Source: a virus (lineage: Duplodnaviria; Heunggongvirae; Uroviricota; Caudoviricetes). From it: 13,383 nucleotides of DNA. A program made the translations under genes and the position numbers. The stretch is from positions 1-13,383 of IMG/VR virus record IMGVR_UViG_2534681933_000013; one strand, given 5' to 3'. The notes beneath the pieces were generated by a model. The model was given only the letters and a program-made list of their open reading frames with translations, did not search any database and was not told the DNA's origin. Positions 1-13,383 of the stretch are shown here, piece after piece (positions within the stretch are counted from its first letter, which is position 1; each line of letters opens with the position of its first letter).

Positions 1-777
<777 letters not shown>

Positions 778-856
778 TTCGAACTCCTTAAATTTATTTG
801 AAGGCAATAAAAAAGTAGGATTTATCCGCAATGGAAGCAAGGCATTACAGGCTTAA

Positions 857-876
857 TTTAAATAACAAAATCCTAA
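857..876 (-). promoter_or_regulatory. GAD box (GadE/GadX-type activator site) upstream of gadA
   Basis: The minus strand reads TTAGGATTTTGTTATTTAAA, an exact match to the 20-bp gad box as I recall it. It lies about 80-100 bp upstream of the gadA ATG in an AT-rich region. Confidence 0.6.
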
Positions 877-944
877 GCAGAAAAATGATCTTTTATAATA
901 TAAACATTTAATATGATAATATTAAAAACAGACTTTATTATCGT

Positions 945-977
945 AATAAAAATCGCCCAAACATTCCTGTTCGGGCG
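945..977 (-). terminator. Intrinsic terminator downstream of yhjA
   Basis: Stem CGCCCAAACA (954-963), loop TTCC, stem TGTTCGGGCG (968-977), 9 of 10 pairs. On the minus-strand RNA it is followed by AUUUUUAUU, about 10 nt after the yhjA stop. Confidence 0.6.
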
Positions 978-987
978 ATCAAATTAA

Positions 988-2385
988 TTATTGTTTATCC
1001 TGCATATACGGCGTGTAAACCCCGTTCAGACTGTGCAGGAAAGCTACGATATCATCCACATCCTCCTGCGGCAGCTCTTTGCCTACCTGATAGCGCAACA
1101 TCAGTTTCACCGCCCCGTCCAGCGTCGGCACGTCACCGCGATGGAAGTACGGTGCCGTTAAAGCAACGTTACGTAAACCGGGTACTTTCTGACGCAATTT
1201 ATCACGCTCTTCTTTAGTCACATTCATACGACCAATATCCGCCGCCGTAATTTCCCCAAAGTTAAAGTCTTTTTTCAGCCCCAACGGTTCGAAGGAACGT
1301 CCGCCGAGAATAATTCCACCATGACAAGTTGCACATTTATTATCTTTAAATAATTGATAGCCTTTTTTCTGTTGCGCCGTCAGCGCATTTTCATCCCCAC
1401 GCAACCATTTATCAAATGGGGAATCCGGCGTAATTAATGTTTTCTCAAATTCAGCAATGGCATCAGTAATATTTTCGCCACTGAAACCTTGCGGATAGAC
1501 GTCGAGGAACTGCGCTTTAAGCTGCGGATCTTTTTCCAGCTTAGCAATAATTTCGTCCCAGGATTTTGACGCCATTTCAATCGGGTTCAACGGCGGTCCA
1601 CCAGCCTGATCCTGCAATGTTGCCGCACGACCATCCCAGAACTGCTCAACGTTAAATACTGAGTTAAATACCGTCGGCGCGTTAATCGGCCCAACTGCGC
1701 CACCAACACCAATCGATGTTTTTCTGCCATCGACGCCCCCCGCATTCAACGCATGGCAATGAGCGCATGAAATGGTGCTATCAGCCGATAAACGGGGATC
1801 GTGATACAGCGCAAAGCCCAACGCCACTTTTTGCGCATCGGTAGGCAGTTTTTGCGGGATGGGCTGCACCGGTTCATTGCGATGCTCCGGAGCAGTATCA
1901 TTGCTGGCGTAATATTCCGCGCGCTGTTTTGCAATCCAGGCCAGTATTTCCGCCCGCTCTTCATCACTCACCTTACCCGCCCAGTGTAGCGCGGTATAAC
2001 GCGTTGGCGGCATAGTTTCATACTGCATCACCCATTCAATCTTATTCAGATCGCTTTGCGAAACGGGTTTATCAGCCAGCAGAGCAGCACGCACGGCCTC
2101 GAGGTTAAAAGATTTATATCCAAGCTTAATGTCGTAATCCATCAACTGTTTCGCGCCAGGAATATAATAATAGGCGGGTAATTCTGCCGAAGGCGTGTGG
2201 CAATAGTCGCATCCTTTTTCGCGGAGAAAGCCTAAAACCTTATTATTTTCACTGACAGCAGATGCCTGAACATCGGCCTGTTTACTGCGTTTATTATCGT
2301 GGTACCACACATAACCAGATAACCCTAAATAGCAAATCGCGACGCCAGCCAGGCCGATCGCGGTAATACGTGAGACCATTTTCAT
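988..2385 (-). CDS. yhjA: Membrane-anchored tri-haem cytochrome c peroxidase (465 aa)
   Basis: Complete ORF with an N-terminal hydrophobic segment and three CxxCH haem motifs (CDYCH, CAHCH, CATCH). GAGGGA Shine-Dalgarno upstream of the ATG. Position between gadA and treF matches K-12. Confidence 0.9.
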   Translation of the reverse strand: MKMVSRITAIGLAGVAICYLGLSGYVWYHDNKRSKQADVQASAVSENNKVLGFLREKGCDYCHTPSAELPAYYYIPGAKQLMDYDIKLGYKSFNLEAVRAALLADKPVSQSDLNKIEWVMQYETMPPTRYTALHWAGKVSDEERAEILAWIAKQRAEYYASNDTAPEHRNEPVQPIPQKLPTDAQKVALGFALYHDPRLSADSTISCAHCHALNAGGVDGRKTSIGVGGAVGPINAPTVFNSVFNVEQFWDGRAATLQDQAGGPPLNPIEMASKSWDEIIAKLEKDPQLKAQFLDVYPQGFSGENITDAIAEFEKTLITPDSPFDKWLRGDENALTAQQKKGYQLFKDNKCATCHGGIILGGRSFEPLGLKKDFNFGEITAADIGRMNVTKEERDKLRQKVPGLRNVALTAPYFHRGDVPTLDGAVKLMLRYQVGKELPQEDVDDIVAFLHSLNGVYTPYMQDKQ

Positions 2386-2492
2386 TATTCTTCCCTCACG
2401 GTGGTGAGTTATTGTGACCCAGAAAATTTTCCAGAATGCTGCAAACGTCTCTGCGAGACAAAGCCATCATAAAAAACAGGGAGATACGCTTT

Positions 2493-2506
2493 TTGATAGG
2501 AATCAA
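2493..2506. promoter_or_regulatory. FNR/CRP-family box TTGAT-N4-ATCAA upstream of yhjA
   Basis: TTGATAGGAATCAA matches both FNR half-sites perfectly, centred about 114 bp upstream of the yhjA ATG. yhjA is known to be anaerobically induced via FNR. Confidence 0.55.
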
Positions 2507-2759
2507 TCAATTACATGAATATAAACTATCAATAAGATAGCCTGTGCCTATTACCCAGATCAGGAATGGCATATCATGATTGCGGCAAGAGCAGGATTGA
2601 ATGTTCTGAAAATGAAAAACAACACGAAATCTGTATTTTTATAAATTCCATTGATATTAGTGCGTTATATTTTTTGACAGGTTAATAAACGTGATCCACC
2701 GCACGCTTTGTCGCCCACCAGGCGGAGCGAATGACTACCCTTAAAGAAAAGCCCGATAA

Positions 2760-4439
<1,680 letters not shown>

Positions 4440-4442
4440 TAT

Positions 4443-4480
4443 TTTTACAGCCAGCCGCTAACTTCCTGCTGGCTGTAAAA
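4443..4480. terminator. Hairpin between convergent treF and yhjB, possible terminator
   Basis: Perfect 12-13 bp inverted repeat TTTTACAGCCAGC / GCTGGCTGTAAAA around a 12-nt loop, starting 4 bp after the treF stop. The flanking U-tract is weak, so terminator function is uncertain. Confidence 0.4.
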
Positions 4481-4489
4481 TTATCCTCT

Positions 4490-5092
4490 TCAGGAGGAGA
4501 TATTTAACATCATTGCCGCCTGGGTGCGATTTTTCACTTCCAGACGGCGATACAGGGATTCCAGATGCGCTTTTACCGTTCCGGTACTGATATTCAGCGC
4601 TCTGCCGATCTCCTTATTTGATTCGCCCGCCGCTAACATGGTTAAAATCTCCCGCTGGCGGGCGCTTAACGATTTGAGATCTTTAATGTCCTTTTCCGGC
4701 GTCGTCCGCCAGTCTCCAGGCAGAAACATCATCCCCATCGCCGCACTATTTACCGCCAACGCAAATGTCTCGACGGTTGAATCACGAGGCACAATGGCCA
4801 GCACATTAAAATGGATAACTTCCTGTAACCACCGTTTATTGCAGTCCGTCGCCGTAATTAACACCTTAACCTCAGGAAATTGCACCACGGTTTTTTGCAG
4901 CAACCAGTAGCAAAACTCACCATCCTGATCGCCATCGAGCATAACTAAGGCTTCAGGGTAACTTTCCAGCTTTTGCCATAACTCGTCTGCCTGACTGGCC
5001 CCCTGAATACTCACTCCTGGAATACGCTGCTGTAAACTGATTTTCATTCCATGAATAAATATTGACTGCCTGTCAAACATGACTATTTGCAT
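4490..5092 (-). CDS. yhjB: LuxR/FixJ-type HTH regulator with a degenerate receiver-like N-terminus (200 aa)
   Basis: Complete ORF with a C-terminal LuxR-type HTH (REILTMLAAGESNKEIGRALNISTGTVKAHLESLYRRL). Position and length match K-12 yhjB. Confidence 0.85.
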   Translation of the reverse strand: MQIVMFDRQSIFIHGMKISLQQRIPGVSIQGASQADELWQKLESYPEALVMLDGDQDGEFCYWLLQKTVVQFPEVKVLITATDCNKRWLQEVIHFNVLAIVPRDSTVETFALAVNSAAMGMMFLPGDWRTTPEKDIKDLKSLSARQREILTMLAAGESNKEIGRALNISTGTVKAHLESLYRRLEVKNRTQAAMMLNISS

Positions 5093-5611
5093 AACTGAAT
5101 CTCCACCTGAATACGTTAAAAAGACTTAAGTAGTGGAAGGGTATTACCCGCGAGAAAAAATAAGAATTCGCCATTTGGCGGTGGCCATTCTACAGAGATG
5201 GCGCGTAGAAAATAGTTACCGATATAAATAGTTACAGCTAAACGCCTGAAATTACATGTCGAGGGCACTATTTAAAACAATTTTGAGGATTTCCTTATAT
5301 TGGTGGTTAGTACGCATGCAATTAAAAATGAAATTCCGCGACCACAAGCCAAAATAACAAATGGCAATGAGACAAAAATAAGCACAAATAGCCAATATGT
5401 CCTCTATTCACTTTAAAGGGAATCGCTGAAAAATACGCTCTGTTTAAGGGGATTCACCTTTCTCAGAAAGCTATTCCGCCCTTTTCCTGCTGAGAAATCG
5501 CCACATTCGTCATGACAACATTGTGAAACCCGGCATTAGATGTTAGAAAAAATAATAAACAATGCGATATGCGCGTTACTGTTTCGCTGTGAACAACAAT
5601 CGGTCAAAGAA

Positions 5612-6592
5612 ATGGATAAAATTCACGCAATGCAGTTGTTCATCAAAGTCGCGGAGCTGGAAAGTTTTTCCCGCGCAGCGGATTTCTTTGCTTTGCCAAA
5701 AGGAAGTGTTTCGCGCCAGATACAGGCACTGGAACATCAACTTGGCACCCAGCTTCTCCAGCGCACCACGCGACGGGTCAAACTCACGCCAGAAGGCATG
5801 ACCTATTATCAACGAGCAAAAGATGTGTTGAGTAATCTCAACGAACTGGACGGTCTGTTTCAGCAGGATGCCACCAGTATCAGCGGTAAATTACGCATCG
5901 ACATCCCGCCAGGAATCGCAAAAAGCCTGTTACTGCCGCACCTGTCGGAATTTCTCTATCAGCATCCGGGAATTGAGCTGGAACTGAGTAGCCATGACCG
6001 TCCGGTAGATATTCTTCATGATGGTTTTGATTGCGTGATACGCACTGGCGCGTTACCGGAAGATGGCGTTATCGCCCGTCCCCTCGGCAAACTGACCATG
6101 GTCAACTGTGCCAGTCCGCACTATCTGACGCGCTTTGGTTATCCGCAAAACCCCGACGATCTCACTTCACACGCAATAGTGCGTTATACACCGCACCTGG
6201 GTGTACATCCGTTAGGTTTTGAGGTTGCCAGCGTTAATGGCGTCCAGTGGTTTAAGTCTGGCGGCATGTTGACGGTAAACAGTAGCGAAAACTATCTCGC
6301 CGCCGGTCTTGCCGGTCTGGGGATTATTCAGATCCCGCGCATTGCCGTGCGCGAAGCCCTGCGTGCCGGGCGGCTTATTGAAGTGTTGCCAGGCTACCGT
6401 GCCGAGCCGCTCTCCCTTTCGCTGGTTTATCCGCAGCGTCGGGAGCTTTCCCGGCGTGTAAACCTGTTTATTGATGCGCCGCGCGATAAATGCACTCTAT
6501 CTTGTGCGATAAATGGCATCCACGCGGCGTTTCATTATTTGAAAAAGAATTACATTTCAGGTTGCGTTATGACAGTCCCAACAGGGTGGTAG
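5612..6592 (+). CDS. yhjC: LysR-family transcriptional regulator whose last ~40 codons read into prophage DNA (chimeric C-terminus)
   Basis: N-terminal LysR HTH (MDKIHAMQLFIKVAELESFSRAADFFALPKGSVSRQ). I prefer the ATG at 5612 to the ORF-track start at 5540 because it gives the canonical LysR N-terminus. The ORF is 326 codons versus about 299 expected, and the tail from about 6472 has Mu-end character. Confidence 0.8.
   Translation: MDKIHAMQLFIKVAELESFSRAADFFALPKGSVSRQIQALEHQLGTQLLQRTTRRVKLTPEGMTYYQRAKDVLSNLNELDGLFQQDATSISGKLRIDIPPGIAKSLLLPHLSEFLYQHPGIELELSSHDRPVDILHDGFDCVIRTGALPEDGVIARPLGKLTMVNCASPHYLTRFGYPQNPDDLTSHAIVRYTPHLGVHPLGFEVASVNGVQWFKSGGMLTVNSSENYLAAGLAGLGIIQIPRIAVREALRAGRLIEVLPGYRAEPLSLSLVYPQRRELSRRVNLFIDAPRDKCTLSCAINGIHAAFHYLKKNYISGCVMTVPTGW
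6472..6540. repeat. Prophage terminal region with Mu R1/R2-like transposase-binding repeats
   Basis: TGATGCGCCGCGCGATAAATGC matches 17 of 22 positions of the Mu right end as I recall it (TGAAGCGGCGCACGAAAAACGC). CGATAAATG occurs twice, at 6484-6492 and 6507-6515, 23 bp apart. Confidence 0.55.
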
Positions 6593-7122
6593 CGGTAGAT
6601 CGTTGACAGTCCAATATCATAGATAATTGCCAGCCGCTTTCTGTCATACCCTTTCTGGAGCAATCTTGCGATCTGCTCATGCTGCTCCTTCGTCAGTTTC
6701 GGGCGACGTCCTCCAACTCTCCCTTGTGCTCGCGCAGCAGCCAGTCCTGCCAGCGTGCGCTCAACTATCAGTTCACGCTCCATTTCTGCCAGTGCACCCA
6801 TCATATGAAAAAAGAACCTTCCCATCGGAGTGCTGGTATCGATTGAATCCGTCAGACTGCGAAAATTGACACCTTTTGCGCGTAGCTCTTCTGTGAGAGC
6901 AATGAGGTGTTTCATTCTTCTACCCAACCGATCCAGCTTCCAGACCACCAATGTATCCCCTCTTTTAAGGCACTTTAAAGCGCGTTTCAGGCCTGGTCGT
7001 TCCGACTTGGTTCCGCTCATTTTGTCCTCAAAAATCTGTTCACATCCTGCGCACATTAATGCATTGCGTTGCAAATCTGTGTTTTGGTCATTTGTTGACA
7101 CACGTATGTAGCCAATCAGCAT
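6550..7122 (-). CDS. Serine DNA invertase of the Hin/Gin/Pin/Cin family (190 aa)
   Basis: Translation from the ATG at 7120-7122 reads MLIGYIRVSTNDQNTDLQRNAL...DRLGRRMKHL...SLTDSIDTSTPMGRFFFHMMGALAEMERELIVERTLAGLAAARAQGR, closely resembling Hin and Gin with the catalytic Ser in RVSTNDQ. The 292-aa ORF-track extension upstream is antisense read-through of a fibre cassette. Confidence 0.9.
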   Translation of the reverse strand: MLIGYIRVSTNDQNTDLQRNALMCAGCEQIFEDKMSGTKSERPGLKRALKCLKRGDTLVVWKLDRLGRRMKHLIALTEELRAKGVNFRSLTDSIDTSTPMGRFFFHMMGALAEMERELIVERTLAGLAAARAQGRVGGRRPKLTKEQHEQIARLLQKGYDRKRLAIIYDIGLSTIYRYHPVGTVITQPEM

Positions 7123-7176
7123 TAAAAATACTCCCTTTTGAGTGGTTAAAGTACTGAGATAATGTGGGGAGGATTT

Positions 7177-7202
7177 GAGAGATAAACGTTGGTTTAGGGG
7201 AA
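7177..7202 (+). promoter_or_regulatory. hix/gix-like 26-bp recombination site 1
   Basis: GAGAGATAAACG-TT-GGTTTAGGGGAA. The right half-site is shared with sites 2 and 3, and the site sits at the 5' edge of the conserved fibre crossover region. Confidence 0.55.
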
Positions 7203-7700
7203 GACTCGGCGCTGCCCGTTGGTGTGCCCGTTCCATGGCCCTCAGCCACACCGCCAACGGGGTGGCTGAAATGCAATGGTGCAGCATTTTCTTCTGAAAT
7301 GTATCCCAAACTGGCAAAAGCCTACCCACCAATAAATTACCGGATTTACGGGGAGAATTTATTCGCGGTTGGGATGATGGGCGCGGGGTGGATGCTGGCC
7401 GCGCTTTGCTTAATTGGCAGCCACACACAATTTTGGATCATGCACACTATATGGAATTATGGACCGGGGATGGACTTGCCGCGGGAAGTACACGGGAAGG
7501 AGTAACCCCTGGAATACTGGCTACATACGGGGACGGGGGAATAGTTAAAACAGACGTAACCCGGTTTTAAATGTGCCTTCCTCACTACGTAGCCATTTAG
7601 CTCTCGTAATGTAAAACGGTTTGGTGAAATTAGTGGAAATGTAGGTACAGAAACTCGCCCTCGCAACGTTGCATTTAATTACATCGTAAGAGCCGCATGA
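7203..7700 (+). pseudogene. Silent, degenerate alternative tail-fibre C-terminal cassette 1
   Basis: Begins with the crossover-region peptide (ALPVGVPVPWPSATPPTGWLKCNGAAFSSEMYPKLAKAYP). A 1-nt deficit in a C-run near 7326-7330 shifts the frame, a stop follows at 7568-7570 and several stops at 7590-7627. The conserved C-terminus GNVGTETRPRNVAFNYIVRAA is still encoded at 7635-7697. Confidence 0.6.
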
Positions 7701-7719
7701 AAACGTTGGTTTAGGAGAA
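7694..7719 (+). promoter_or_regulatory. hix/gix-like 26-bp recombination site 2
   Basis: CGCATGAAAACG-TT-GGTTTAGGAGAA, in the same orientation as site 1. It overlaps the stop codon of cassette 1 and immediately precedes cassette 2. Confidence 0.55.
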
Positions 7720-8187
7720 GGTTCTGCACTGCCCGTTGGCGTGCCTGTTCCATGGCCCTTAGCAACACCACCAACGGGCTGGCTGAAATGTAACGGTGCA
7801 GCATTTTCTTCTGAAATGTACCCCAAACTGGCAAAAGCCTACCCCACCAATAAATTACCGGATTTACGCGGAGAATTTATCCGTGGCTGGGATGATGGGC
7901 GAGGAATTGATGCGGCACGCGCTTTATTGAGCATTCAAAGCGGGATGTTGGAAAAACATCGCCATATTGTTGTAGCTAACGATGGATATGACACAAAAGA
8001 TGAATGGGAGTTGGCTACGATTTTCAAAAAAACATATACACAAGGCAGGGGGCTTGATGCCACAAATACAGGAGGGAGTTTGATTCCATCACCAACGCTT
8101 CATTCACGAGGAAGTATTGGTAACACAGGTGGTAGTGAAACCCGCCCCCGCAATATTGCATTTAACTATATCGTGAGGGCGGCTTAG
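7720..8187 (+). CDS. Silent alternative tail-fibre C-terminal cassette 2, promoterless gene segment with an intact frame
   Basis: Open frame from the crossover site through GSALPVGVPVPWPLATPPTGWLKCNGAAFSSEMYPKLAKAYPTNKLPDLRGEFIRGWDDGRG to the family C-terminus ...ETRPRNIAFNYIVRAA. It has no start context of its own and would be expressed only after inversion. Confidence 0.6.
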   Translation, partial: GSALPVGVPVPWPLATPPTGWLKCNGAAFSSEMYPKLAKAYPTNKLPDLRGEFIRGWDDGRGIDAARALLSIQSGMLEKHRHIVVANDGYDTKDEWELATIFKKTYTQGRGLDATNTGGSLIPSPTLHSRGSIGNTGGSETRPRNIAFNYIVRAA

Positions 8188-8193
8188 TTATAT

Positions 8194-8805
8194 TCAACTG
8201 GCTGATGCCAGTGGTATTTCCGGCAAGTTGATATCTGGTGCCATGTTTATATCCATTGCGTTCAGCGCGTCTATATAATCCAGCACGGCATTAAGCCGGG
8301 TGGTTTCTGCCTGCGTCAACTTCCGCCCGGCCCGCAACTTCAACTGAATCAGACTTATGGAATCCATTGCCGCATCAGCCAGTGACTGGCGCTTGGTTTC
8401 TGCCGCTTCTACTGCGGCACGATGTTGTACCTCAGTATCTGTCACCCATTTTTCACCATCCCATTTATCGTATGGTGTTAACGGGGCGATAGTGGTTGTA
8501 TTTTTCGGGTAGTCACCCAGCGCCGTGATTTCTTCGGTGTTTCCCGTGTCAGTGCTATAGACGGTTTCACCACGATGGTCTGGCGCATACTCCCATGAAT
8601 TTAAATCCTCCGAACGGCGAATAGCATAGCCAGATTTATGTGCGCCTGGGGCATCTAAACAGGAATTAGCCGGAATACCAACACCCACAGCAAGATATTC
8701 AGTTGATTCGGAAATATATTCCCGTGTCTCACCATCATAGTTATAAACGACGATGTTTCCTGCCTGTACGGCAATAAGGTCATCATTTAATATCGCGTTA
8801 TTCAT
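8194..8805 (-). CDS. Tail-fibre assembly chaperone (Mu U / lambda Tfa-like, 203 aa)
   Basis: Complete ORF immediately downstream of the fibre gene with a TAATG stop/start overlap, in the position occupied by tfa genes in Mu, P1, e14 and lambda. Call is by position and size; I could not confirm a family motif. Confidence 0.75.
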   Translation of the reverse strand: MNNAILNDDLIAVQAGNIVVYNYDGETREYISESTEYLAVGVGIPANSCLDAPGAHKSGYAIRRSEDLNSWEYAPDHRGETVYSTDTGNTEEITALGDYPKNTTTIAPLTPYDKWDGEKWVTDTEVQHRAAVEAAETKRQSLADAAMDSISLIQLKLRAGRKLTQAETTRLNAVLDYIDALNAMDINMAPDINLPEIPLASAS

Positions 8806-9253
8806 TATGCGGTTCTCACAATATAATTGAAGGCAATATTGCGTGGGCGGTTTTCATTCCCATCTGAGGATTCCGTTCTGTATTGACTGGTAAATCTACC
8901 GTTAATTGCACCTTGCCGGACGGCATTATCTGTCGACAACAGACTATCCCCTCTTTTGTCATTTGGCACCAGTACCGTGTTATCCCACGCATCCCATGAC
9001 CGAATATTATGATAATGACTTCCTGTTAACCACCCCTGCATGCTTAAGATGCCCCTTCCGGCATCCACCCCGCGCCCATCATCCCAGCCACGGATAAATT
9101 CTCCGCGTAAATCCGGTAATTTATTGTTGGGTAGGCCTTTGCCAGATTTGGGTACATTTCAGAAGAAAATGCTGCACCGTTACATTTCAGCCAGCCCGTT
9201 GGTGGTGTTGCTAAGGGCCATGGAACAGGCACGCCAACGGGCAGTGCAGAACC

Positions 9254-9279
9254 TTCTCCTAAACCAAGGTAATTGAGGA
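9254..9279 (-). promoter_or_regulatory. hix/gix-like 26-bp recombination site 3, within the expressed fibre gene
   Basis: Plus strand TTCTCCTAAACC-AA-GGTAATTGAGGA matches about 19 of 26 positions of hixL as I recall it (TTCTTGAAAACCAAGGTTTTTGATAA). It is inverted relative to sites 1 and 2 and lies at the constant/variable boundary. Confidence 0.6.
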
Positions 9280-9439
9280 CTTCTTTTATACTGCCCATAG
9301 CGATAATAGCGCGACCAATAGCTGTAAGGGTTGTCAGTGCTGCGCGGTCTGCTCCGGTAAAATAAGGCAACCGATCTGCTGCAGTGGCAAGTCCTGCCAG
9401 AGCAGTGAGCGTGGCATCTGCCGGTTGTTTTCCGTTTGC

Positions 9440-9990
9440 CAGATCGTATGCAGCCTTGACCGCTTTCGGTGTGGCGGCCAGTATTTCAGACGTGCTGTTG
9501 ATGTCACTGCTCAATTGTACGGTGCCTTTTGCCGTCAGCGAGGCAGCAGGCACTCCCGTTATCTGACTCCACGGGTGAGTGTGGCTGACGGGCGCCTTGC
9601 CGGCTGCAAGGTCGTATGCAGCCTTGACCGCCTTCGGCGTGGCAGCCTCAGTTTCTGATTGACTGTCCGTGGCGCTGCTCAGTTGTACGGTGCCTTTTGC
9701 CGTCAGCGAGGCAGCAGGGACTCCCGTTATCTGACTCCACGGGTGAGTGTGGCTGACGGGCGCCTTGCCGGCTGCAAGGTCGTATGCAGCCTTGACCGCC
9801 TTCGGCGTGGCAGCCTCAGTTTCTGATTGACTGTCCGTGGCGCTGCTCAGTTGTACGGTGCCTTTTGCCGTCAGCGAGGCAGCAGGCACTCCCGTTATCT
9901 GACTCCACGGGTGAGTATGGCTGACGGGGGCCTTGCCGGCAGCCAGGTCATATGCAGCCTTGACGGCCTTTGGTGTGGCGGCCAGCGTTT
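9440..9990 (-). repeat. 168-bp in-frame tandem repeat array inside the tail-fibre gene
   Basis: The string CTGACTCC recurs at 9563, 9731 and 9899. Units 9563-9730 and 9731-9898 are near-identical; the flanking units are partial or diverged. Each unit encodes a 56-aa module. Confidence 0.8.
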
Positions 9991-10252
9991 CAGAGGTGCT
10001 AGTTGGTGGCACTGCTCAGTTGGGTGAACCCCTTAGCTGTCAGTGTCGCGTCCGGGTGGTTACGGGAACGTACGTGTTCAGCCAGTGACTGTGCGGCTTC
10101 CTCCGTTTTTTTCTTCAGCCATTTCGTCCTGTTTGCCAGTTGCCGGGGGGCTCGATTTGATATCCCGTCTGCACCACCCAGAACCGGATCTGATGTCTCC
10201 AGTTGATAGATATTTTCTTCCCACTTTTCTGTTTCATTCAGGTTTCCCATAA

Positions 10253-10831
10253 TCAACTGCTCCCGTGGTTATAACTGCCATCATGGATGGCGGTATTGTT
10301 ATAGCGAATGGCCACAGACTGATACTCCAGGCTGGCCAGATGGCAGCGGGCCGGTGCAAATGCAGCCAGCGTCTGACGCAGCATCGCGGCCTGATCGTTA
10401 GTAATGGGCTGTTTCAGAATAACGCGATAAACTGCCCAGGCGGCTGCATCTCCATGAACAAACAGTCCGTTATAGCTGCGATTGCCGTCGTAACTGAGAC
10501 GACCTGTGCCTTCAATCAGATCCACTTCACCAAAGCCAAAACGGCGGATAACTTCCCGGATTGACCACGGCGTCCCTTTATACCGGTGCAGTTCGATGGC
10601 TGCTTTTATAAGCATGCGGCGAACATCGTCCGATTCCGCCAGCTCCCAGCCATCGCCAGACAGTGAGAACTGCTCGCCCAGCCATGGCAGCGCGGAACTG
10701 TCGACGATATCGACGAGAAAGACCATCAGTACGCTCAGGTCGATGTTATCCAGCCGTCCTGCCAGTCTTCCCAGCGTCCTGAGACTGATATCACCCTCAA
10801 GCGGTGGCGGGAGTTGTAATGGCTCAGTCAT
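10253..10831 (-). CDS. Baseplate/tail protein, P2 gpI / Mu gp48-like (192 aa)
   Basis: Complete ORF immediately upstream of the fibre gene, with overlapping stop and start codons on both sides. Call is by size and position in the baseplate operon. Confidence 0.7.
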   Translation of the reverse strand: MTEPLQLPPPLEGDISLRTLGRLAGRLDNIDLSVLMVFLVDIVDSSALPWLGEQFSLSGDGWELAESDDVRRMLIKAAIELHRYKGTPWSIREVIRRFGFGEVDLIEGTGRLSYDGNRSYNGLFVHGDAAAWAVYRVILKQPITNDQAAMLRQTLAAFAPARCHLASLEYQSVAIRYNNTAIHDGSYNHGSS

Positions 10832-11927
10832 CAGACACTCCAGTCATGTTAAGAGTGATTGCCGTACAGTTTGCCCATTCGTTTTCTGCCACCACCCGCA
10901 GTGCCGGTGTCACCAGTTCAACCTGGTACACCCCGGAAACGGACAATGCACTGATAATCTGGCTGGGGACAATATCGCGCCCCAGCGTGGCGGCACGTGA
11001 TGCCACCCAGTTCTGTATGGCGCTGTTAGCGGCATCTTTTACAGACCTGGCATCCTGATCACGATAGATCGTAATCTTGGCTTCAATGGTGTAATCCACC
11101 TTCACTGGTGTTTTAGCCCGCACTGTATCAGTGAGTGGCCTGACTTTCTCATCAGAGCAGAAACTCTCTACCAGCGTGAGAACACCGCCGTCCGGCAGAC
11201 CGGTACTGAGCAGCGGATACAGATCTACGGTCCCGGGAACCGGGGAAAGCACAGCAACATCGACAATGTTGGGATGGGCCTGCATGGCATGAAAGCGGTA
11301 TGCGCCACGGCTTCCGGCATTGGTGAATGACTCCGGGGCCAGCCTGATACGCTCCCGGAGCCTGTCATCGTCTTCCTGTTCTGAACCGCCGGAACTGGCC
11401 GTCAGATTGCTCACCAGCAGGTCGACGTTATCAATCTCATCGAGTAACTGACTGACCTGCGCAGGTTGCCAGCCGTTACCAGCGGTACCGGGTTCGGTAC
11501 AGGTGGACGTGACATTGACCAGCAGCAATCCGGCCTTCAGTACCACATCTGTATCGGTGGCAAAAATAACGCTGTCGGAAGCGCTGACGCGGGTGCCTGC
11601 CGGGATCAGCACATCAATGGCCAGTGCCTCATCTACGGAGAACTGGAGCGTGGTAGTGGCAGGCTGCGCGGCAAGACGGTATACACCGACCAGTTCACCG
11701 AGGTAATCAATCATCGGCTCACGGGCAAAGGCGACCAGATTCTGCTTTGCTGCCTCCTGTACCGCAACCCTGACCAGCATTTCGCGATAGGCCCACAGAT
11801 CAATCAGCAGACGTTCTGCCTGTGCCGGGTACAGCGTTTTGCCGGTATCCGCTTCATACTTCGCAATCATTTCTGCCGTGATTTTGTCGGCATCGCGTTC
11901 AATAAAATCGGGTTCTGTCAGCGCCAT
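10824..11927 (-). CDS. Baseplate protein, P2 gpJ / Mu gp47-like (367 aa)
   Basis: Complete ORF between the gp25-like and gpI-like genes, overlapping both neighbours by 8-10 nt. Size and position fit the Baseplate_J family. Confidence 0.75.
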   Translation of the reverse strand: MALTEPDFIERDADKITAEMIAKYEADTGKTLYPAQAERLLIDLWAYREMLVRVAVQEAAKQNLVAFAREPMIDYLGELVGVYRLAAQPATTTLQFSVDEALAIDVLIPAGTRVSASDSVIFATDTDVVLKAGLLLVNVTSTCTEPGTAGNGWQPAQVSQLLDEIDNVDLLVSNLTASSGGSEQEDDDRLRERIRLAPESFTNAGSRGAYRFHAMQAHPNIVDVAVLSPVPGTVDLYPLLSTGLPDGGVLTLVESFCSDEKVRPLTDTVRAKTPVKVDYTIEAKITIYRDQDARSVKDAANSAIQNWVASRAATLGRDIVPSQIISALSVSGVYQVELVTPALRVVAENEWANCTAITLNMTGVSDD

Positions 11928-12265
11928 AGCAGCTCCTGAGTCCGGGTCTGTCCGTCTGAGCCTTTCCAGCTCACCCGGAGCGTAAGATGTTCGCCGTCGA
12001 CGGCGGGTTTAACTGACATAAGCTGGCAGCGGGGCTCCCAGCGCCGGATGGCATCGACGGATTCGCGCACCACATGCGGAATGGCCCGGTCTACAGGCCA
12101 GTCGATATAAAGATGCAGATTGCTGCCGAACTCCGGGCGATGCGGGTCGCTGCCGCGGGGAGTCCGCAGGATAATTTGAATCGCCTGCCGGATATCATCC
12201 AGCCCCCGGACAATTTCGCCGGGAGCCTGCAGGGTCGGTTGCCAGAATACTGAGGTTGTTTTCAT
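11918..12265 (-). CDS. Baseplate wedge protein, gp25/gpW-like (115 aa)
   Basis: Contains the gp25-family core IQIILRTPRGSDPHRPEFGSNL. The 115-aa size matches P2 gpW and Mu gp46. Confidence 0.8.
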   Translation of the reverse strand: MKTTSVFWQPTLQAPGEIVRGLDDIRQAIQIILRTPRGSDPHRPEFGSNLHLYIDWPVDRAIPHVVRESVDAIRRWEPRCQLMSVKPAVDGEHLTLRVSWKGSDGQTRTQELLWR

Positions 12266-12283
12266 GGGGGCAGTATTGCCCCC
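12266..12283 (-). other. Stable hairpin abutting the start codon of the gp25-like gene
   Basis: GGGGGCA-GTAT-TGCCCCC, a perfect 7-bp GC-rich stem. On the mRNA it ends directly at the AUG and covers the likely Shine-Dalgarno position. Confidence 0.5.
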
Positions 12284-12319
12284 GTGCGGGAACGCTGATA
12301 TTAAAGGCGTTTAAAAAGC

Positions 12320-12916
12320 TCAGTGGGAGTGGTGGCTGGAGTTTTCGCCATCAGACAACATACTGCCCGTGGCATGGGCATTCCCTTTAATCTCGATATT
12401 GCCATGGATGGTCGCGGTAACACCTTCACCACCAGAACCCGCCATGCCTCCTTCGTAAATCAGCTTACCCCTGACACGCAGATCTCCGGTAAGTTCGGTT
12501 TCCGGTGCGTCAATCGTGGCTTTCTGTGTTTTCAATACCACATCAGCACCACACTCAATGACAATATGCTCAATGCCGCCCCGGATGGTCAGAGTGTGCG
12601 TCTTCCGGTTGTAGCTGTACTCTGCACCATCAGCAAACCGGGTTCCCCGGATATTTTTGTCACTGAACGGTGGTTTATCGACGTCTGAATACACCGCGCC
12701 CAGAATAACACCATCCTCGCCGTTGGCATCGAGCAGTACCTCAACCTGCTCCCCCACGTCAGGGAGCCAGTAATCTTTGTTATCCTGGGTATTGCGCTGC
12801 AGCACGTTAAGCCAGTTTGTGCGCAGGTTATCGCATTCAGGCAGACGAACGCGGGCCTGAACCCTGTCGGCATCAACGGCACTGACCGTACCGACCTGAC
12901 GAGTGACACCAGTCAT
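12320..12916 (-). CDS. Baseplate spike/assembly protein, gpV / Mu gp45-like (198 aa)
   Basis: Complete ORF with a gpV-like N-terminal segment (WLPDVGEQVEVLL) and a glycine-rich C-terminal part. Its start overlaps the upstream gene's stop (ATGA). Confidence 0.75.
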   Translation of the reverse strand: MTGVTRQVGTVSAVDADRVQARVRLPECDNLRTNWLNVLQRNTQDNKDYWLPDVGEQVEVLLDANGEDGVILGAVYSDVDKPPFSDKNIRGTRFADGAEYSYNRKTHTLTIRGGIEHIVIECGADVVLKTQKATIDAPETELTGDLRVRGKLIYEGGMAGSGGEGVTATIHGNIEIKGNAHATGSMLSDGENSSHHSH

Positions 12917-13383
12917 TTTTTCTTCTCCTTAATCACCGTCGATGTACTGCCATCCGGGTGATAAACCGTGAGTTTCTGAGTTTTTTGTTTTTTCCCTCTT
13001 GTGACTGGCCCCCGTGCCACTTCCAGCTCTGTGGTGTAGCCGCTGTTACGGTCAAACGCATGGCGGGCAGTGGTTATGAGCCATGGCCCGGATAACTGCC
13101 CAAAACCCACCAGTTCAATTTTGTTGCCTGCTGTCAGTTGAGGTGTTCCCGTCAGCGTCAGGGAGCCGTTCTGCTGGTATTCGTTATGTCTGGCCAGTGC
13201 TGAATCCGCTTTAATCCGGGCACTGTCCGGGTCGCTGACGCGGCTGTTAACTTTAAGTGAGTCAGCGCTGGTAACCTTACCACCTTTGAGCTTTTTGTCG
13301 CTTTCACGGGTACCACCATCAGCTTCGTAGACGATCAGTTTTTTACTGCTGCTTTTCTGGTGTTTTACCTTTGCAGATTTATA
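12913..13383 (-). CDS. Phage baseplate/tail protein, C-terminal 156 codons; possibly the gpD / Mu gp44 hub, by synteny only
   Basis: The minus-strand frame is open from the window end to the stop at 12913-12915 (ends ...LTVYHPDGSTSTVIKEKKK). The ORF track shows only its last 65 codons from an internal GTG. Product assignment is positional. Confidence 0.45.
   Translation of the reverse strand, partial: YKSAKVKHQKSSSKKLIVYEADGGTRESDKKLKGGKVTSADSLKVNSRVSDPDSARIKADSALARHNEYQQNGSLTLTGTPQLTAGNKIELVGFGQLSGPWLITTARHAFDRNSGYTTELEVARGPVTRGKKQKTQKLTVYHPDGSTSTVIKEKKK

Follow-up and report, generated by a model that had tools for sequence, protein, structure and literature searches.

A genuine in-frame array of 56-codon modules in the shaft region of a BcepMu-like prophage tail-fibre gene

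A 168-bp tandem array inside a tail-fibre gene, found in a draft contig in which the frame of that gene is broken on either side of the repeats, raises the question of whether the array and its copy number are real and of what a change in that number would do to the fibre. The comparisons described here lead to the reading that this is very probably a genuine and recent array of in-frame 56-codon modules in the fibre-shaft region of a BcepMu-like prophage, correctly assembled, and that the indels disrupting the frame are probably errors. The stretch of DNA analysed, referred to below as the window (13,383 nt), is the entire contig AIFS01000042.1 of assembly GCA_000249535.2.

Bases 1–6471 of the window match closed E. 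coli O55:H7 genomes (gadA, ccp, treF, yhjB, rcdB) at 100% identity, and the prophage end at position 6472 takes the place of the final 40 nt of rcdB (yhjC). The closest phage record is that of Escherichia phage PhiKM (98.1% identity over window positions 9191–13383), which carries a transposase, gam, gemA and C/Mor and was filed by its depositors under Bcepmuvirus. The type of the prophage is read from such relatives, the transposase and Mu-type early genes of the window prophage falling outside the window. The same prophage end adjoins rcdB in the window and, elsewhere, the yidJ/K region, aroA, sufB and three further loci; the presence of relatives beside many different host genes is as expected for a transposable phage. 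Judged from these comparisons, the host is an O55:H7-like E. coli whose rcdB gene has received, in its 3' end, a BcepMu-like (transposable, Mu-type) prophage, and the array belongs to the tail-fibre gene of that prophage.

That gene, an analogue of Mu S and P2 H, spans positions 8805–10250 in full and is read from the minus strand, a point to be added to an earlier note on this DNA. It is split into three ORFs (9999–10250, 9044–10012 and 8805–9068), an interruption on both sides of the array that the earlier note had overlooked. Upstream, also on the minus strand and all intact, are baseplate genes of the V (12320–12916), W/gp25 (11918–12265), P2 J (10824–11927) and P2 I (10253–10831) types. 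Downstream lies the gene for the tail-fibre assembly protein (8194–8805, minus strand; PF02413 Caudo_TAP, E = 9.6e-31). Two silent alternative fibre C-terminal cassettes are placed on the plus strand: an intact one with a Collar domain (7741–8187), with a gix-like site at 7706–7720 ahead of it, and a second one (7224 to ~7700) broken by private indels at 7328, 7557, 7568, 7590 and 7598. A serine DNA invertase of the Gin/Cin/Pin type is encoded at 6550–7122 on the minus strand (Pfam Resolvase, E = 8e-51, together with HTH_7).

The gix/hix-like crossover core TTGGTTTAGGAGAAG is placed at 9253–9267 on the minus strand, where the constant part of the active fibre gene meets the variable part. The core TTGGTTTAGGRGAAG has three matches in the window, at 9253–9267 (minus), 7189–7203 (plus) and 7706–7720 (plus), with none expected by chance, and each of the two plus-strand sites precedes a Collar-domain cassette. 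An adjacent serine invertase and inverted crossover sites, one of them inside the fibre gene, are the features of a Gin/Cin/Pin-type segment. Invertible fibre tips are classic Mu and P1 biology. The Mu G segment, the P1 C segment and the e14 P region likewise present an invertase at the prophage end, a gix/hix-like site at the junction and inverted copies before silent cassettes; the window differs from Mu in having two co-oriented silent cassettes and one assembly gene, whereas Mu has the paired Sv-U and S'v-U'. In a comparison between strains, the assembly-protein gene is opposite in strand to the fibre gene in four related loci (L005–L008) and co-oriented with it in L009 and in the window, orientations that are consistent with inversion of the segment.

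The array itself was delimited by Tandem Repeats Finder at 9437–9983, on the minus strand within the fibre gene, with a period of 168, 3.3 copies, 92% matches and no indels (score 889). A gapless repeat finder placed three copies over 9429–9994, with start-to-start distances of 168 and 168. When the window was compared with itself at an offset of 168, positions 9552–9718 matched 9720–9886 in an unbroken identity of 167 nt, a self-match that greatly exceeds chance. Four units could be distinguished along the sense strand (minus strand of the window). Module A, the first 56-aa module (LTAKGFTQLSSATN/STSETLAATPKAVKAAYDLAAGKAPVSHTHPWSQITGVPAAS), is placed at 9875–10043 and measures 169 nt owing to a private 1-nt insertion at 10001. 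Module B (9707–9874), the extra copy that gives the array its four motifs, is identical to unit 2 of L002. Module C (9539–9706) is a conserved 56-aa module adjoining the terminal partial unit, and its 168 nt are found identical in L002, L003, L007, L008 and L100. Finally, the partial module D (LTAKGTVQLSSDINSTSEILAATPKAVKAAYDLANGKQP), at 9422–9538, has the PF03406 motif without the HxH linker and runs into the constant region. Copies arranged head to tail, a constant period, a length that is a multiple of 3 in the coding frame and copy-number polymorphism among related alleles are all found here, as in a tandem repeat.

Units B and C differ in a single base (9719 versus 9551), a difference between GTC and GTG that leaves Val in both, and each is translated into the same 56 residues, LTAKGTVQLSSATDSQSETEAATPKAVKAAYDLAAGKAPVSHTHPWSQITGVPAAS. 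As 168 nt correspond to 56 codons, the period of the array is in frame. The earlier note had described near-identical adjacent units of exactly 56 codons; the length of the unit is confirmed, and the near-identity holds for the B/C pair, with its single synonymous base and 167-nt exact run, but not for the remaining copies, which are ~17–24% divergent. Thus, unit A has 29–30 nt different from B and C, and the partial unit D has 28 nt different over 117 nt. The codon differences between A and C are mostly synonymous (18 synonymous against 5 non-synonymous), which shows that the older copies diverged under constraint at the protein level.

The 322-aa ORF of the window (9047–10012, minus strand) matches PF03406 (Phage_fiber_2) in four stretches with 210.4 bits, the cut-off being 22 bits, and PF07484 (Collar) was also matched in the fibre ORF by the Pfam search. 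An intact relative, L002, matches PF03406 in five stretches (295.3 bits). Each 56-aa module is made up of one PF03406 'phage tail fibre repeat' (G-x-x-Q-L-S-S-x-x-x-S-x-S-E-x-x-AATPKAVK) and a conserved linker, AP-x-S-H-T-H-P-W-S-Q-I-T-G-V-P (x is V in the window, followed by -A-A-S), and modules A, B and C all have SHTHPW. PF12789 (PTR, phage tail repeat like) matches on this linker, GKAPVSHTHPWSQITGVP, with 26.5 bits for the window ORF, just under the gathering cut-off of 27 bits; in L002 the whole-protein score of 30.1 bits exceeds that cut-off, with no individual stretch passing it.

Among species representatives of other genera, the PF03406 motifs are usually spaced at 42–45 aa and the linker is absent. 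A spacing of 51–56 aa together with HxHxWxQITG[VI]P was seen in a few loci only, the named isolates including an Escherichia sp., two Superficieibacter and a Dryocola, and in these other genera the linker is conserved in divergent modules of 51–56 aa. In certain E. coli alleles, units of 56 aa occur together with units of 44 aa, which have no HxH linker. The unit in the window exceeds the usual spacing and reaches 56 aa because a 12-residue insertion containing the HxH belongs to each repeat.

The PF03406 family was first noted in lambda Stf, variable-length repeat regions have been reported in the fibres of EHEC prophages, and as of 2012 little was known of the structure or function of the family (PMC3368898). 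Literature searches gave no later structural account of the repeat beyond one contact-based model, which disagreed with its homology model (PMC8078820). The long-catalogued PF03406 fibres (lambda Stf, Mu S, P2 H-type and the collagen-like fibres of EHEC prophages) share the motif that is matched four times in the window ORF, Mu S having a single copy at residues ~109–149. PDB sequence searches with the whole fibre and with two modules matched the PF03406 motif only in those same residues of Mu S and gave no match for the HxH linker among solved structures. An AlphaFold2 model of the intact fibre protein P0013 (481 aa; single chain, no alignment) had a mean pLDDT of 35 and a pTM of 0.25, values too low to interpret.

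Octahedral Fe sites are built from HxH motifs in the fibre shaft of the R1/R2 pyocins, in T4 gp37 and in P2 gpV; wherever such a site has been solved, the metal (Fe or Zn) is coordinated octahedrally by six His drawn from three chains (PMC6116203). These ions are believed to keep the chains in register and to make them stiffer (PMC6116203; see also PMC11705849). The window resembles these systems (the pyocin R1/R2 shaft, the T4 gp37 tip, T4 gp12 and P2 gpV) in placing an H-x-H in a fibre of a P2/Mu-type contractile tail; it differs from them in that the motif, known here from sequence alone, occurs once per tandem module and in the proximal shaft, not at the receptor-binding tip. By analogy with these families, a His6 metal site probably lies on the threefold axis at the conserved HxH of each module, and one such site (HxH from each of 3 chains) would be gained with every module.

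Arrays of this type are prone to collapse in short-read assemblies, and the earlier note had cautioned that the true copy number might differ from that deposited. The caution is sensible in general and was not borne out here, the four-motif array being 100% identical in three other assemblies (L100, L101 and L102). In these the prophage has three different host flanks, one copy being on a 5.2-Mb contig, and the array, base-for-base identical, is part of an intact 481-aa gene. Between 6480 and 13100 they differ from the window at 23 positions, none of them within 9437–9990, so that the array is the same in copy number and at every base. In addition, the intact 481-aa fibre P0013 was found on 10 contigs, four of them larger than 1 Mb, and it equals the frameshift-corrected protein of the window except for four residues near the crossover region. 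On the basis of this agreement between independent assemblies, the array is taken to be correctly assembled in the contig.

An origin of the array, or of its copy number, as a short-read assembly artefact of the draft contig would be in keeping with further irregularities in the repeated part of the fibre DNA, namely seven private single-base indels and a chimeric-looking patch at 9099–9260. More weakly, it would also fit several public short-read contigs that stop 0–2 nt from fibre codon 83, ~45 nt into module A, and one scaffold with an N-gap near the same codon. The base-for-base match of 9437–9990 in three assemblies at other insertion sites, one of them of 5.2 Mb, makes such an artefact highly improbable, as do the matching intact protein on large contigs and the closed genomes that carry arrays of 2 to 7 motifs. 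An apparent excess of assemblies breaking exactly at the site of the T insertion was discounted: an exact-match look-up of the 83-aa product returns only products ending at codon 83, and contig ends at that point are therefore selected by construction.

A closer look at the reading frame in this contig showed two lesions, +1 and −1, one on each side of the array, so that the array as deposited is not translated within a full fibre. The first is an in-frame TAG at 9999–10001 (minus strand), created after fibre residue 83 by a private 1-nt insertion (sense AAC[T]AGC; plus-strand base 10001) that is absent from L001–L009 and from L100–L102. The second is a private 1-nt deletion at ~9123 (within 9113–9130, minus strand), which shifts the frame back and is located inside the patch at 9099–9260, whose 14 positions match the window's own silent cassette at 7741–8187. 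Over ~6.6 kb, the private differences of the window from L100–L102 amount to seven single-base indels (10001, 9123, 7328, 7557, 7568, 7590 and 7598), the 14-position patch and three isolated substitutions. The indels are confined to 7328–10001, and each is within or next to fibre DNA that is repeated or invertible, those at ~9123 and 7328 falling in sequence of which the fibre cassettes have duplicate copies. No differences from closed O55:H7 genomes were seen in the host flank of 6.47 kb, and the 2664 nt of the baseplate genes V-W-J-I are unchanged relative to L100.

Seven indels against three substitutions, all of the indels in or beside repeated or invertible DNA, point to errors of the draft consensus as the likelier source of the fibre frameshifts, which are thus considered probably not a true pseudogenization. 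Were the +1 and −1 indels real, the prophage would be decaying and the array would be a non-functional relic, its structure and origin unchanged. The deposited sequence does contain the in-frame TAG and the second frameshift near 9123, one silent cassette is broken too, and the insertion at 10001 is outside any homopolymer. The 83-aa product with a true stop was found, among the places read, only in this contig, as would be expected of a private lesion whether real or not. Decay of this kind is nevertheless regarded as unlikely: seven indels against three isolated substitutions, in a prophage otherwise identical to its counterpart, are unlike natural decay, they fall in DNA where mixed reads lead a consensus astray, the four baseplate genes are intact and unchanged, and the host flank is free of errors.

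A third possibility, in which programmed ribosomal frameshifting bypasses both frame changes and a full fibre is made, would make use of the fact that indels of +1 and −1 leave the N- and C-terminal parts in a common frame. It was rejected, as intact alleles exist, and its probability is negligible: AAC-TAG-C presents no recognisable slippery sequence, the ribosome would have to stay in the shifted frame for the ~880 nt from one site to the other, and the identical prophage elsewhere has neither indel and one continuous ORF. With draft error as the preferred reading of the lesions, the fibre gene in this contig is best annotated as probably intact rather than as three fragments.

RefSeq annotation splits several related fibre genes that translate as a single open frame. 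Repeat-rich fibre genes are thus a recurring source of false pseudogene calls, and the locus serves as a warning of how easily they are mis-called.

Comparison of the array across related prophages, as the earlier note had proposed, found from 2 to 7 motifs. In nine related loci the fibre genes are, on translation, uninterrupted ORFs with 2, 3, 4, 5, 6 or 7 PF03406 motifs, made up of 1 to 6 full 56-aa modules and, in several of them, one or two 44-aa modules. These intact relatives support the proposal that a change in copy number keeps the frame and would alter the length of the fibre. A wider survey queried complete E. coli genomes with the two array flanks only; 572 carried both, and a spread sample of 48, which is not a census and is dominated by one lineage (ST131-type, three motifs), contained three motifs in 28, five in 2, six in 1 and seven in 5, the others having three motifs plus 132 nt (2), 300 nt (6) or 600 nt (4). 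The length classes in this sample are separated by multiples of 168 and/or 132 nt, and all steps are multiples of 3. In the protein clusters that have the canonical N-terminus (102 in all), the commonest motif spacings were (56,56,56,56) in 47, (56,56,56) in 22 and (56,44,56,44,56,56) in 13, mixed 56/44 architectures being present.

The rate at which the array changes can be judged against the neighbouring baseplate genes. Over the same 2664 nt, L001 (two motifs) and L002 (five motifs) each differ from the window (four motifs) at one position, and L100 (four motifs) at none. These comparisons show an array copy number that changes fast relative to point substitution. The unit distance matrix placed unit C, identical, in five other arrays, and unit B of the window corresponds to unit C with one change and is common to L002. 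The recent duplication or ongoing unequal recombination suggested in the earlier note is supported by the single synonymous base between B and C with unit C shared by five other arrays, and by the 2, 4 and 5 motifs of prophages that are 0–1 substitutions from the window over 2664 bp.

According to the origin proposed here, the commoner three-motif form (A-C-D) would have given rise to the four-motif form A-B-C-D through a very recent duplication of one 168-bp unit. Unequal homologous recombination or replication slippage would be favoured at this locus by its long direct repeats, and either process would leave closely related prophages with different numbers of modules, always in frame. The A-D, A-C-D, A-B-C-D and A-B-x-C-D alleles may all have arisen in this manner, between 168-bp repeats. 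The trimeric shaft would grow by one PF03406 segment per module, at a place bounded by the domain that attaches to the baseplate (residues 1 to ~69) and by the constant region ahead of the switchable tip. If so, the number of modules would set the length of the fibre, as what is known of the family suggests.

Whether such changes are selected is a separate matter. The array could be a contingency locus, in which frequent, selected changes in module number tune the reach of the fibre to the thickness of the O-antigen or capsule, alongside the switching of the tip by the invertase. In keeping with this, copy number differs among prophages that are 99.96–100% identical in neighbouring genes, many architectures coexist in E. 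coli, and the fibre gene also has the invertible tip system with its three gix-like sites and invertase. However, neutral unequal recombination in any long tandem repeat predicts the same pattern, and the three-motif class dominates the sample, so that a contingency locus is considered distinctly unlikely. Similarly improbable is a fast-switching length dial, in which RecA-mediated gain and loss of modules, each with its HxH metal clamp, would produce sub-populations of differing reach, the polymorphism being kept by selection from the O-antigen or capsule. If true, such a dial would be a second axis of host-range variation, beyond the switching of tips by the invertase.

In the pseudo-repeats of the adenovirus fibre shaft and in the intragenic tandem repeats of bacterial surface proteins, the number of in-frame units sets the length of an extended surface structure and varies between strains. 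PMC2639597 offers an example of bacterial intragenic tandem repeats. The folds and organisms of these systems are unrelated to those of the window fibre, and the likeness is one of analogy only. In-frame variation of repeat number in a tail fibre is expected, an ordinary instance of a known phenomenon. As for the module itself, literature searches on PF03406/Phage_fiber_2 and on repeat-number variation in fibres returned no description of the 56-aa composite module or of the 2-to-7 polymorphism.

The locus provides a natural series of fibres, nearly identical in other respects, in which a defined 56-aa module is present one to six times. With it, the influence of shaft length and of HxH-site number on adsorption could be examined, and a structure of the uncharacterised PF03406 repeat would be easier to obtain.

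Comparison with the near-identical prophage present in three other assemblies revealed seven single-base indels that are private to this contig (window positions 7328, 7557, 7568, 7590, 7598, 9123 and 10001). Five of them are a T inserted before an A on the sense strand of the respective cassette, with four falling within 45 nt, and each of these insertions generates a TAA or TAG triplet; in the remaining two a single base has been lost. This pattern suggests that errors entered the consensus sequence where the DNA is repeated or invertible.

The insertion at 10001 creates a TAG directly after codon 83 of the fibre gene, and its position coincides with assembly breaks elsewhere. Among the public contigs matched by exact look-up of the truncated 83-residue product (L011-L019), eight short-read contigs stop 0-2 nt from this codon (window about 10000-10002) and the scaffold L016 carries an N-gap there. 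The exact-match look-up favours contigs ending at this codon and the shared ends may therefore be a trivial coincidence. The contigs that stop here come from diverse sources (NCBI assemblies, an ENA metagenome and Logan), among which the assemblers probably differ. In four of the related loci (L001, L003, L006 and L007) RefSeq labels parts of the fibre gene as 'incomplete; partial in the middle of a contig', and the DNA of all four reads as one unbroken fibre ORF of 369-526 residues. The partial calls look like an artefact that recurs when the repeat region is annotated.

Fibre modules of enterobacterial type were also found in assemblies assigned to unrelated phyla, namely a 400-nt contig of a Corallococcus assembly (L023), two MAGs labelled Sporobacter and Bacillota (L032 and L057) and a Vagococcus assembly (L065), where contamination or mis-binning is their likely origin.

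On the host side, in window 5612-6592, the prophage interrupts rcdB (yhjC), which encodes a LysR-type regulator, with the junction at 6471/6472. The right end of the prophage sits 40 nt ahead of the natural stop, replacing the final 13 codons, and the ORF continues into phage DNA. An insertion of the prophage in rcdB was found in no complete E. coli genome of the collection.

Next to this junction, window 6550-9267 is an invertible fibre-tip system with multiple cassettes. It contains a Gin/Cin-type invertase, three gix-like sites at 7189 (+), 7706 (+) and 9253 (-), two silent cassettes that carry a Collar domain and share one orientation, and only one fibre-assembly gene. Fourteen differences from the three near-identical copies (L100-L102) are clustered as one patch at 9099-9260, which begins where the active fibre gene has its gix-like site and over most of its length matches the window's own silent cassette at 7741-8187 (+). 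The patch could be the footprint of a genuine recombination or inversion, or else a chimera produced by merging reads of different cassettes into one consensus. Among related E. coli genomes, the assembly gene is found in either orientation with respect to the fibre gene (L005-L008 versus L009).
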